Positions 30,058 through 56,733 of a DNA stretch of 64,000 nucleotides are shown here, one piece after another; positions within the stretch are counted from its first letter, which is position 1, and every line of letters begins with the position of its first letter. The stretch lies in contig CAVSNY010000007.1 of NCBI GenBank assembly GCA_963729605.1, forward strand, positions 192,001 to 256,000, read 5' to 3'. Below the pieces are notes generated by a model. It did not search any database. It saw nothing but the letters and a program-made list of their open reading frames with translations, and had not been told where the DNA came from. The DNA comes from an uncultured Gammaproteobacteria bacterium (lineage in GTDB: Bacteria; Pseudomonadota; Gammaproteobacteria; DRLM01). The translations under genes and the position numbers were made by a program.

Positions 30058-30896
30058 CTAGAACCTATCTCAAAATTGCCTGAGCAGGATACCGATGGTT
30101 GCCAGCTGCACAAACCCGAGAAAATTCTCGGCGTAGTATTCCCAACGGACCAGGAGACGACGTTGCCATTGAAGCCAGGCAAAGAAGCGTTCCACCAGCC
30201 AGCGTCGTTCGTATCGGCGCAGGCGACGCCCGTCTTGTGTCTTGGATTTTACGCGATTCTGCCGGTGCGGCGAGATCATCTCGATGCCCTCTTGCCGCAA
30301 TTCCTCGTCCAGTTTGTCGCTGTCGTAGGCACGATCGCCAATCAGATTTTCCGGCTTCGCTTCGATCATGTAGAACTCGAAACTCAGCTGCACCAGCGTG
30401 ACTTCATGGTGGTTCGCCGCATGCGTACTGACCGCCAGCGGCAAGCCGTGACGATCCACAATTGCCATGATTTTAACGCCTTTTCCGCGTTTTGTCGGGC
30501 CGATCTCCGCGCCGCCGCCCTTGGCCGAGGCAAACGTGGCATCGATAAAGCATTCCGATTCATCCAGCGCGCCTTCATCGCGCAGCGTGTTGGCGAGAGA
30601 GGTCATGACATCACGCAGCACTTCGTTGCGGCACCAATTCTGAAAACGGCGATGCACCGTTTTGTAGTTCGGATAGCATTGCGGCAGCATATGCCACTGC
30701 GCGCCGGTATTGAGAATCCAGAGAACGGCATCGAGGACTTGACGGGAAGAAATCGGCTTGCGACCTGCGCGCCCCGCCGCAATGTTTTCCTCCGGAAAGT
30801 GTTCCCGGATGCGTTCCCAGTGTTGGTCGCTCAGCCGTAGCATGCGGCAAATTATATGCGATTCTGCTCAGCTTGTGATTTTGAGATAGGTTCTAG
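30058..30896 (-). mobile_element. IS5-family insertion sequence (IS427-like group)
   Basis: Perfect inverted ends ctagAACCTATCTCAAAAT...ATTTTGAGATAGGTTctag enclosing an intact transposase; coordinates include flanking CTAG. Confidence 0.93.
30070..30843 (-). CDS. IS5 family transposase
   Basis: LSDQHWERI, GAQWHMLP, IDAT, IGDRAYDS, RWLVERFFAWL (DDE). Confidence 0.95.
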   Translation of the reverse strand: MLRLSDQHWERIREHFPEENIAAGRAGRKPISSRQVLDAVLWILNTGAQWHMLPQCYPNYKTVHRRFQNWCRNEVLRDVMTSLANTLRDEGALDESECFIDATFASAKGGGAEIGPTKRGKGVKIMAIVDRHGLPLAVSTHAANHHEVTLVQLSFEFYMIEAKPENLIGDRAYDSDKLDEELRQEGIEMISPHRQNRVKSKTQDGRRLRRYERRWLVERFFAWLQWQRRLLVRWEYYAENFLGFVQLATIGILLRQF

Positions 30897-54807: not shown

Positions 54808-55623
54808 ATGCAAATATTAGTTACCCTGAAAGAATATCAGATCTTGCGCGTGGCCTTGCAAACCGGCGTGCCGCATGTCGAGTGTTCGCTGGACTTGGGC
54901 CGATCCATGACGCGCGTTGAGGTGGCCGATGAGGGCTGGTGTTGGCAAGGCCGATGGTTTCCCTATCTCGAGAGTTGTAACGACAGGACCATCTATTATT
55001 GGGATGGCGAGTCGTTTCAACCGGTGTCGCGTTACACCACGTCCTTGATCAAATTGGTGCCGACTGACTGGGGGGCGCCGACCTTCGAGATCGACGGCAT
55101 CAAAATGCTGCCCACGGCACAACTCTCTCCTTACACCGACGCCGAACGCAAGGTGGCGTTGATACAACCGCGCGGCAAGCTGATATTGGACACCTGCGGC
55201 GGCCTCGGTTATTTCGCCGCCTGGTGCGTGCGCGGCCTGGCCCGGCGGGTGCTGTCTTTTGAAAAGAATCCCGACGTGGTGTGGTTGCGGGATTTAAATC
55301 CCTGGTCGCCGAAGGTGGACGAGGTGTTGAGTTTGACGGTGGGCGATATCGTCGAGCAGATCGTCTCGCTGCCCGATGGTTCGGTCGATGCCATCTTGCA
55401 CGACCCGCCGCGTTTCGGCATCGCCGGCGAACTTTACTCGCAGGTCTTTTACAATCAGTTCGCCCGGGTGCTGCGTCGCAAAGGCAAACTGTTTCATTAC
55501 ACGGGTGCGCCCAACAAATTGACCAGCGGCCGCGACGTGCCCAACGAAGTGGCGAAACGTTTGCGCCGCGCCGGTTTCGTCACGGAGTTGAACGGCGACG
55601 GCGTGCTGGCGGTGAAAAGTTAA
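54808..55623 (+). CDS. SAM-dependent methyltransferase
   Basis: PTFEIDGIKM, LDTCGGLGY, ILHDPPRF..AGELYS, LFHYTG. Confidence 0.9.
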   Translation: MQILVTLKEYQILRVALQTGVPHVECSLDLGRSMTRVEVADEGWCWQGRWFPYLESCNDRTIYYWDGESFQPVSRYTTSLIKLVPTDWGAPTFEIDGIKMLPTAQLSPYTDAERKVALIQPRGKLILDTCGGLGYFAAWCVRGLARRVLSFEKNPDVVWLRDLNPWSPKVDEVLSLTVGDIVEQIVSLPDGSVDAILHDPPRFGIAGELYSQVFYNQFARVLRRKGKLFHYTGAPNKLTSGRDVPNEVAKRLRRAGFVTELNGDGVLAVKS

Positions 55624-55834
55624 GCCGCACTGGCGCCGCGGCGAAGTTATGCGGCCGATCACCGCCCGCGGGTTCACGGTCCTTTTTGAAAGATCGAGTG
55701 GCCCGGCACGCCGGCCTCGCTTGTTCGACATCGAAGAATCTTTCGAATACATCGCTTGTCCGCTCGTGGCGAAGGGCGAAGATGAAAGAAGTGTTCTGCG
55801 GAGTGAGGATGATCATCCGGGCGCCCTCACCCCT

Positions 55835-56347
55835 GCCCTCTCCCGCTCGCGGGAGAGGGAGGAATCCGTCACGCTGACCGTGGCGCCCGTGATATTGCCT
55901 CTCCCGCGCGCGAGGGAGGAATGATTTTGCGAGGTACGAGAAAATTACGGACCAGTCTCTCCCGCGCGCGCGGGAGGAATGGGATGGAATCATTGCGTGT
56001 GCAGGCCGGCGCTGTCTCTCCCGCTCGCGCGAGCGAGGAATGGTGGTGGTCGTTCCGTCCGTTTCGGGTCATGCGCCTCTCCCACTCGTGTGCGCGGGAG
56101 GAATAATGCAGCGGTTCGACAAGAACATTCATGCCGAGCCTCTCGCCCGCGGGAGAGGAGAGAAATCATCGCCCAGGCGGGCGTCGATTTTCCGCTGAGC
56201 CTCCGGCTCGCGGGAGAGAGGGAAGTTGATCGGTTCATCCCCACGCATGTGGGGAACGAGCCTCCCGCGTGCGGGAGAGAGAAGAAATTACTTCCGCAGC
56301 TTCATCATCAGTTCGAACGAGCCTCCGGCTCGCGGGAGAGAGGGAAT
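55835..56347. CRISPR. Orphan CRISPR-like array: 9 divergent REP-derived hairpin repeats and 8 unique spacers (non-canonical, no cas genes nearby)
   Basis: Repeats start at 55835, 55897, 55955, 56014, 56075, 56136, 56197, 56258, 56319 (26-31 bp, CTC(T)CCGC..GCGGGAG core, GAAT/AAAT/AAGT end); spacers 30-33 bp and mutually unrelated. Confidence 0.65.
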
Positions 56348-56463
56348 AATAATGCTCAGCCTGGTATTCCAGTGTTGCGTTAGGTTGCCCATCGTGGACG
56401 GGTTCCAGCTGGGATGCCCCGGCGTCGCTGGCCCGCGACGCCGATGCTGGGATACCATAACCC

Positions 56464-56733
56464 ATGGCCAGGGTCGTCTTCACCGATAACTTGCAGCGGC
56501 TCGTCGCTTGCCCGCCCGTGGAGACGGACGGCGGCAGCTTGCGCGAGGTGCTGGACGCGGCATTCCGGAAACATGCGCGGGTACGGACTTATGTGCTCGA
56601 CGAGCAAGGCGCCATTCGTAAACACGTCGCGGTGTTCATCGACGGCGTCCTGGTCCAAGATCGTCAAACCTTGACGGATCCGGTGTCGCCCACGGCGCAG
56701 GTGTACGTCATGCAAGCCTTGTCGGGAGGATGA
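56464..56733 (+). CDS. MoaD/ThiS family ubiquitin-like protein
   Basis: 89 aa beta-grasp pattern, YVLDEQG..RKHV, C-terminal ALSGG. Confidence 0.92.
   Translation: MARVVFTDNLQRLVACPPVETDGGSLREVLDAAFRKHARVRTYVLDEQGAIRKHVAVFIDGVLVQDRQTLTDPVSPTAQVYVMQALSGG

Follow-up and report, generated by a model that had tools for sequence, protein, structure and literature searches.

The 64,000-nucleotide (nt) window analysed here, positions 192,001 to 256,000 of contig CAVSNY010000007.1 from an uncultured gammaproteobacterium, contains a regularly spaced row of nine palindromic units between a gene for a methyltransferase-like protein and a gene for a ThiS-like protein (Table 1). The units are of the repetitive extragenic palindrome (REP) type, each of the eight slots between them holds a unique sequence, and the seventh slot (slot 7) carries a piece of the repeat found in type I-E arrays of CRISPR (short palindromic repeats that are clustered and regularly interspaced). 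Regular spacing and unique spacers are properties that the region 55836-56346 shares with canonical CRISPR arrays. Near-identical direct repeats in a single orientation were not found in it, and neither adjacent cas genes nor a cognate genomic repeat accompany it, the three repeat types resident in this genome being different from the REP units. Overall, the host array is not a canonical CRISPR and agrees with REP elements in its high-copy extragenic palindrome, which also forms inverted doublets, and we refer to it as a pseudo-array.

A type I-E repeat fragment among REP-type units

Within slot 7, TGAT at 56227-56230 is followed at 56231-56257 by CGGTTCATCCCCACGCATGTGGGGAAC, a minus-strand copy of the type I-E repeat. 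The reverse complement of this 27-mer is identical at 27 of 27 positions to the repeat of real arrays with a 61-nt period, which we retrieved from at least 119 stretches of genome contigs; the array hosts among the matches listed include Treponema, Syntrophaceae, Nitrospirales, Methanoregula, Cellvibrio and Chromobacterium. In the window the 27-mer occurs a single time, as it does in the whole 3.48-Mb, seven-contig assembly, and 100 shuffles gave no match with up to three mismatches. At the same tolerance it is absent from 40 relatives, and a loose regular expression for I-E-type repeats found no second I-E-like repeat in the genome.

The copy in slot 7 is 2 nt short of the full 29-nt repeat. 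Among 2,144 exact copies of the 27-mer at the retrieved loci, the two preceding bases are GT (1385), GA (350), CT (201) or GC (136), more rarely AT (57) or CC (9), and in a few cases AA (2), CA (2), TT (1) or AC (1). The window has TC at this place, a dinucleotide that precedes none of the 2,144 canonical copies, which argues that slot 7 contains an excised fragment of a repeat and no entire repeat standing in place. Resemblance to the I-E repeat ends precisely where slot 7 gives way to unit 8 in the 61-nt register, and the I-E hairpin is intact in the predicted fold. The six extra nucleotides of the slot would form the beginning of the adjacent I-E spacer; they follow the repeat in 2 of 2,578 copies against 0.63 expected by chance, a count that is uninformative on the source. 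An Rfam scan of 55600-56600 (E ≤10) had no hit at the I-E piece and gave just noise in the rest of the interval. The sequence-only reading had recognised in slot 7 the pattern of a type I-E repeat lacking only 2 nt, and had taken it for a piece of a real type I-E locus. Both claims hold: the slot consists of an exact 27-mer of a widespread repeat, cut at a place where no canonical copy has the same flanking bases, plus six further bases.

Table 1. Features of the pseudo-array locus and contigs of other studies that bridge slot 7, in window coordinates.
Feature	Position	Strand	Remark
Left neighbour gene	54808-55623	+	S-adenosylmethionine (SAM)-dependent methyltransferase-like; not cas
Unit 1 with left flank	55790-55863	+	full-length copy of the genome-wide REP element
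Pseudo-array	55836-56346		nine degenerate REP-type palindromic units, eight unique slots
Units 2-5	55897-55923, 55955-55981, 56014-56042, 56077-56105	+	long arm left, tail GGAATG
Units 6-9	56136-56163, 56197-56224, 56258-56285, 56319-56346	-	exactly 28 nt, with 33-nt slots between
Slot 7	56225-56257	-	33 nt; read as captured 27 nt of I-E repeat + 6 nt
Exact I-E 27-mer	56231-56257	-	equals positions 3-29 of a widespread type I-E repeat
Bridging contig, X1 record 5	55976-56280		
Bridging contig, X2 record 16	56049-56270		
Bridging contig, X4 record 31	56082-56293		
End motif like that of a miniature inverted-repeat transposable element (MITE) or insertion sequence (IS), degenerate	56367-56388	+	16/22, counted by eye; below the 5-mismatch cut
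Right neighbour gene	56464-56733	+	ThiS-like protein

The left arms of consecutive units start 61, 58, 59, 61, 61, 61, 61 and 61 nt apart, six of the eight intervals being 61 nt. These units are REP-type palindromes, as had been proposed from the letters of the window. The core of unit 1 (about 55820-55860) recurs dozens of times both here and in the relatives G003 and G005, as a high-copy extragenic palindrome often arranged in inverted pairs, which places it among REPs and REP doublets forming hairpins (REPINs). Identity to unit 2 drops with distance, from 96% in unit 3 to 84% in unit 4 and 72% in unit 5. The long arm of the palindrome lies on the left in units 1-5 and on the right in units 6-9, an opposite asymmetry. 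Slot 6 has a short GC hairpin of its own (56170-56183), followed by a T-rich run that appears terminator-like on both strands in a simple scan.

Among public sequencing runs, none contains most of the stretch and no RNA run was listed for it; places that the runs leave uncovered are not taken as evidence. Slot 7 and both of its flanking units are bridged by contigs of three other studies with only 3-4 differing letters, and a chimeric assembly, the failure that the sequence-only reading had foreseen for its claim, is therefore unlikely. In the sequencing runs of the same three studies (X1, X2 and X4), depth spikes on the 27-mer, reaching 1085 in X2, and the joints return to the 27-mer after 28-32 other letters; this signal comes from genuine I-E arrays in other organisms that are more abundant in the same habitats. 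The abundance of such arrays in related metagenomes, together with the division of the assembly into seven contigs, is what could be said for a chimera or a chance resemblance. Either is hardly credible in view of the empty shuffles, the 27/27 identity to a repeat of at least 119 stretches and the bridges from three other studies across both junctions. A fourth run, X3, contains relatives that are 86-91% identical in the flank and come in two variant forms. One joins 56220 to 56345 and is without slot 7, unit 8 and slot 8; the other joins 56254 to 56316, keeping slot 7 and missing one unit. The unit number is thus variable at the right end of the array, and units could be gained or lost by recombination between repeats.

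One history that would place an I-E repeat here is a former I-E array that collapsed in place to a single repeat, around which REP units were inserted later. Solitary exact copies are indeed common elsewhere (30 of the 119 retrieved stretches hold no more than two), and the locus coincides with a synteny breakpoint. Such a relic is nevertheless improbable, since the first 2 nt of the repeat are lacking and the bases beyond unit 8 do not supply them, since a slot of exactly 33 nt like its neighbours is not predicted by it, and since tblastn found no I-E cas remnants. A leader profile built from 35 leaders of the retrieved I-E arrays, which scored those leaders themselves at a median of 24.95 bits, also found no I-E-type leader upstream of the I-E piece at E ≤1000 in the native sequence, and likewise none once units 8 and 9 had been removed in silico. 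With a single copy in the genome and no leader match, nothing resembles tandem I-E repeats with spacers and a leader. Judged by its sequence, the I-E piece derives from a type I-E repeat as a fragment and is not a member of an I-E array, because it is solitary, truncated, and without leader or cas genes. With canonical type I-E arrays it shares the 27-nt sequence and the 61-nt period, and differs from them in being a single copy with unrelated REP flanks and no leader or cas genes.

Duplicated palindromes around short inserts across the genome

The spacing of the pseudo-array recurs elsewhere in the genome. Distances between neighbouring REP cores peak at 55-64 nt, and when cores are anchored, 12 of 25 intervals measure exactly 61 nt, the others being mostly 59 (n=4) and 60 nt (n=2). 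We also scanned for direct repeats without regard to REPs and outside the real CRISPRs (24-nt window, at least 22 identical, distances 30-110). Here 61 nt was the top distance among those that are not multiples of three, with five cases against three for the next highest. Exact duplicated blocks and the inserts between them measured 30+31, 28+33 and 30+30 nt, at different palindromes, and a further case with one mismatch measured 29+32. A target of repeat size that is duplicated on both sides of an insert of spacer size, which characterises arrays newly formed by off-target Cas1-Cas2 integration (neo-CRISPRs), is thus found in this genome, with a modal unit of 61 nt.

The 28+33 case lies in coding sequence. 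At C4 305113-305201, an exact 28-nt duplication surrounds a 33-nt insert inside an open reading frame (ORF) of the enolase superfamily (304300-305307), whose reading frame it breaks. In the five well-defined cases the centre of the hairpin lies ~12-13 nt from one end of the duplicated block, three of these centres coming from a computed fold and two from stems read by eye. Counted manually, the hairpin centre of the resident type I-F repeat is at 13 and that of the I-E repeat at 13.5. Similarly, the canonical form of a MITE-like composite (a REP, about 75 nt, a second REP and a conserved end motif) can be compared with an expanded copy, which has 59 nt more at one REP. These correspond to a second copy of the REP and some 30 unique bases between the two, one of the copies having lost 2 nt. 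At the other REP the expanded copy has 175 nt more, read as three units from the repeat layout.

The end motif of this composite has a wider distribution. Ending in ...ATTTTGAGATAGGTTCT, it terminates the MITE-like REPIN composite that flanks pseudo-arrays, and it is present in ~48 genomic copies (≤5 mismatches); the degenerate version to the right of our array likewise has counterparts beside other pseudo-arrays of the genome. In inverted orientation the motif bounds elements of ~835 bp, one of which lies in the window at 30060-30894 (C7 222060-222894), with further copies at C5 231664-232498, C6 421542-422376 and C7 495802-496636. A six-unit pseudo-array at C7 419232-419555 has two pairs of slots, 1 with 4 and 3 with 5, that are 93-95% alike, from which it follows that a tandem duplication of three units took place once the array existed.

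REP pairs in this arrangement numbered 15 in this genome against 1 in the control, and stayed at control level in five relatives, a comparison that comprises these five genomes only, some of them fragmented. No Cas1 is present in four of these relatives, of which two have the REP family.

These observations bear on the idea that the clusters grew by a process intrinsic to REPs, in which REP biology and its associated tyrosine transposases (RAYTs), or recombination, would impose a spacing rule of their own without any Cas protein, and the I-E piece would have come in by an unrelated insertion or gene conversion. Unit 1 does belong to a genome-wide REP/REPIN family, a RAYT-like Y1 transposase gene is present, the C7 419232-419555 cluster includes a tandem duplication of three units, and the divergence and mixed orientation of the units resemble a REP cluster more than a CRISPR. 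We nonetheless consider growth of this kind unlikely. To our knowledge, no REP mechanism duplicates 28-30 nt around a unique insert of 30-33 nt. The same geometry appears at unrelated palindromes and within an ORF, the foreign piece fills slot 7 exactly, and such clusters are missing in relatives that have the REP family and no Cas1. The RAYT-like gene, recognised by a Y1_Tnp match at the start of a contig, is not flanked by this REP type on its visible side. The pseudo-array shares with clusters of REPs, REPINs and bacterial interspersed mosaic elements (BIMEs) the high-copy extragenic palindromes, the inverted doublets, the RAYT-like gene and the regular spacing. A precedent is Pseudomonas fluorescens SBW25, whose evenly spaced REP arrays are ascribed, in PMC3116915, to an unknown second mechanism. 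As described there, the tandem units of the ordered SBW25 clusters are nearly identical together with their flanks, a description given for these clusters and not for the intervals of the evenly spaced GI sequences; in contrast, the array described here has unique slots, a 61-nt unit and one slot of foreign content.

Resident CRISPR systems and possible sources of the slots

The genome, which is 94.5% complete, encodes three Cas1 loci, each associated with CRISPR repeats. Contig C4 carries a very large array of 297 repeats of 28 nt (153801-171590), typed as I-F because Cas1 (near 145 kb) and Cas6f (C4 153115-153669) lie beside it. Contig C6 has 157 plus 31 repeats of 37 nt and contig C7 has 27 repeats of 36 nt, in both cases with a Cas1 nearby. 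The I-F spacers are 32 nt long in 285 of 296 cases, giving 60-nt units, and 33 nt long in nine.

The slots of the pseudo-array are unrelated to each other, as judged from a maximum pairwise score that 52% of shuffles reached and from a mean slot-slot score of 5.53 versus 5.25 +/- 0.18 in shuffles. Tandem duplication of whole units is not supported for this array, the slots being similar neither mutually nor to the flanks. For the slots other than slot 7, no source was found in the genome itself; phages gave nothing significant (best E 0.4), nor did plasmids (one 84% match, E 0.008), and every significant match in 400 genomes of the phylum was to the I-E piece. The GC content of the inserts (0.567) is close to that of the I-F spacers (0.568) and below that of random genomic 27-mers (0.607), a difference that is not decisive at p=0.077. 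The proposal made from the sequence that the slots hold acquired DNA gains circumstantial support, through their uniqueness and lack of mutual similarity, the boundary-exact end of the I-E piece and the duplications with inserts elsewhere in the genome.

Real I-E arrays with the repeat of slot 7 are abundant in the same metagenomes, and the repeat also occurs in seven viral stretches, as mini-arrays and as solitary units. Foreign sources for slot 7 thus exist, both in arrays of the habitat and on viral contigs. The viral copies comprise exact solitary units (L166/L169, L170/L171 and L167), two of which share one 52-kb contig and are both preceded by CC, and mini-arrays of 2-3 I-E repeats (L165 and L168). 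These may be candidate members of the solitary repeat units known from viruses. A convincing match to the seven viral stretches was found for none of the 507 real spacers in the genome. Solitary I-E repeat copies were also seen directly beside arrays of a different, longer repeat, which we take to be of type I-C, at six retrieved loci (L041, L049, L050, L065, L088 and L089), and beside an I-F-type repeat at L070. The solitary copies at these seven loci represent either the ends of hybrid arrays or metagenome assemblies that have collapsed.

The sequence-only reading had further suggested that a transcript of slot 7 might act as an RNA anti-CRISPR-like decoy for Cas6e or Cascade, or as a guide against I-E arrays. 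In PMC10651486, solitary repeat units that imitate CRISPR repeats are described as a viral strategy, the repeat of slot 7 itself is found as solitary units on viral contigs, and the hairpin is intact in the predicted fold, all of which would suit a mimic. We regard such a role as very improbable and find it unsupported. The genome offers no I-E system that we could find to inhibit and no Cas6e, the surroundings are chromosomal housekeeping genes and not a mobile element, nothing promoter-like was found, the repeat lacks its first 2 nt, and the flanking REP units are unlike the repeats of the three resident systems. Compared with the solitary repeat units, viral mini-arrays and RNA anti-CRISPRs described in PMC10651486, slot 7 is likewise a lone CRISPR repeat outside an array with an intact predicted hairpin; unlike them, it is chromosomal, 2 nt short and embedded in REPs, with no cognate I-E system found in its host. 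RNA anti-CRISPRs sit on mobile elements and mimic the repeat of the system of their own host, and neither was found to apply to slot 7.

The neighbourhood consists of genes for the methyltransferase-like protein, the ThiS-like protein, a BNR protein and SelO. The interval 55624-56463 is a synteny breakpoint: in genomes of the same genus the two neighbour genes lie apart and an array is absent. The methyltransferase gene is followed by other genes in three same-genus genomes, and in the relative G003 an OmpA-like gene precedes the ThiS-like gene. A search of metagenome contigs with the ThiS-like protein returned distant relatives only, at no more than 58% identity.

Proposed capture at REP hairpins and its implications

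We tentatively favour a reading in which the array is a REP-seeded pseudo-CRISPR, produced by off-target capture of the Cas1-Cas2 type at REP hairpins. An integrase of the Cas1-Cas2 kind would have used the REP hairpin repeatedly as a stand-in for a CRISPR repeat, and with each event some 28 bp surrounding the hairpin would have been doubled and some 33 bp of captured DNA added, generating a 61-nt unit. The piece in slot 7 would have been excised from a type I-E array, from position 3 of the repeat to position 6 of the next spacer. Its source array may have been foreign DNA, from the organisms or viruses that have this repeat, or an I-E module since lost from the lineage. The strongest single fact in our analysis is that foreign sequence fills a 33-nt slot exactly, at the same size as its neighbours. 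Taken with the repeated structure of 28-30 nt and 30-33 nt at several palindromes, the boundary-exact foreign slot points to the footprint of an integrase that makes staggered cuts and inserts pieces of fixed size. The three Cas1 loci of this genome with its very large I-F array, and the control-level REP pairs in five relatives of which four have no Cas1, agree with such an agent. A Cas1-Cas2 integrase, its type and the origin of the DNA are all inferred, and the evidence on mechanism is circumstantial throughout. At present the array is most likely without a CRISPR function and would be a fossil record of capture events.

A 28-bp duplication with a 33-bp insert is the geometry of the E. coli I-E system. 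Off-target Cas1-Cas2 integration is said, in work of Nivala, Shipman and Church from 2018, to spawn new arrays with the E. coli I-E proteins, and in an account by Shmakov and colleagues from 2020 it is reportedly among three proposed routes by which arrays remote from cas genes arise. The array resembles neo-CRISPRs in that a short repeat-like sequence is duplicated around a spacer-sized insert away from cas genes. The differences are that the seeds here are natural REP-type palindromes at several loci, that the arrays are old and degenerate, that no matching I-E integrase was found in this genome, and that a CRISPR array supplied the piece found in one of the inserts.

A more specific proposal, which we consider doubtful, is that an I-E-type module, since lost or visiting on a mobile element, placed 33-bp pieces at REP palindromes across the genome with 28-bp duplications. 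One captured piece would then derive from the module's own CRISPR array, and the pseudo-arrays would be the fossil of de novo array genesis by a defence that has vanished; REP hairpins would on this view be sites at which CRISPR-like arrays naturally arise. The 61-nt (28+33) geometry is the sole feature that hints at an integrase of I-E type. The suggestion in the sequence-only reading that the cell had a type I-E system found no support, as there was no CasE or Cse1 match, no cas remnant, no second repeat, and no copy of the repeat in any of 40 relatives.

Several observations weigh against capture by a Cas1-Cas2-like integrase. Unit 7 has the same sequence as unit 9, with only 79% identity to the intervening unit 8, an arrangement that simple serial duplication does not predict. 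Given the opposite asymmetry of units 1-5 and 6-9, the array is read as two blocks in opposite orientation, and unit identity across it ranges from 68 to 100%, far more divergent than in a working array. Slot 7 is the only one of about 30 slots with a traceable foreign origin. The insert at C4 305113 resembles the sequence immediately upstream at 17 of 22 positions (p=0.005), while another insert elsewhere does not resemble its own flank (p=0.94). Because the resident I-F system makes 60-nt units, the 61-nt mode misfits the only resident integrase that comes near the right size. CasE and Cse1 (PF08798 and PF09481) were not matched, in a search for which the E. coli control was silent with both profiles and whose sensitivity is thus uncertain. 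A tblastn search with 393 ORFs from 21 I-E loci recovered no I-E cas remnant, the only similarity being that of I-E Cas1 proteins to the resident I-F Cas1 at ~23% identity. No I-E-type leader precedes the I-E piece, no promoter-like site was found at the array, the comparison with relatives extends to five genomes, and the evenly spaced arrays of SBW25 show that REPs can attain a regular spacing, there attributed to a second mechanism.

In a limited search of titles and abstracts, we found no description of REP-seeded arrays or of a CRISPR repeat within a REP cluster. The array would be a natural instance of REP-seeded, CRISPR-like capture with a CRISPR repeat as its cargo. How new CRISPR arrays originate is still an open question; off-target integration has reportedly been shown under overexpression in E. 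coli, natural cases being said to be circumstantial only. This genome offers several natural loci, at REPs and even in coding sequence, with the footprint expected of off-target integration, and in slot 7 it offers one insert of provable origin, a CRISPR repeat. Should the clusters instead have arisen by REP-intrinsic growth, an unknown process would capture short DNA with a 61-nt ruler, which would also be new. If capture at REP hairpins is correct, unit 9 with its right flank provides a concrete substrate for an integration assay, and many "questionable CRISPRs" that consist of REPs may be traces of earlier adaptation. A link would then exist between REPs and CRISPRs, the two great classes of palindromic repeats in bacteria.

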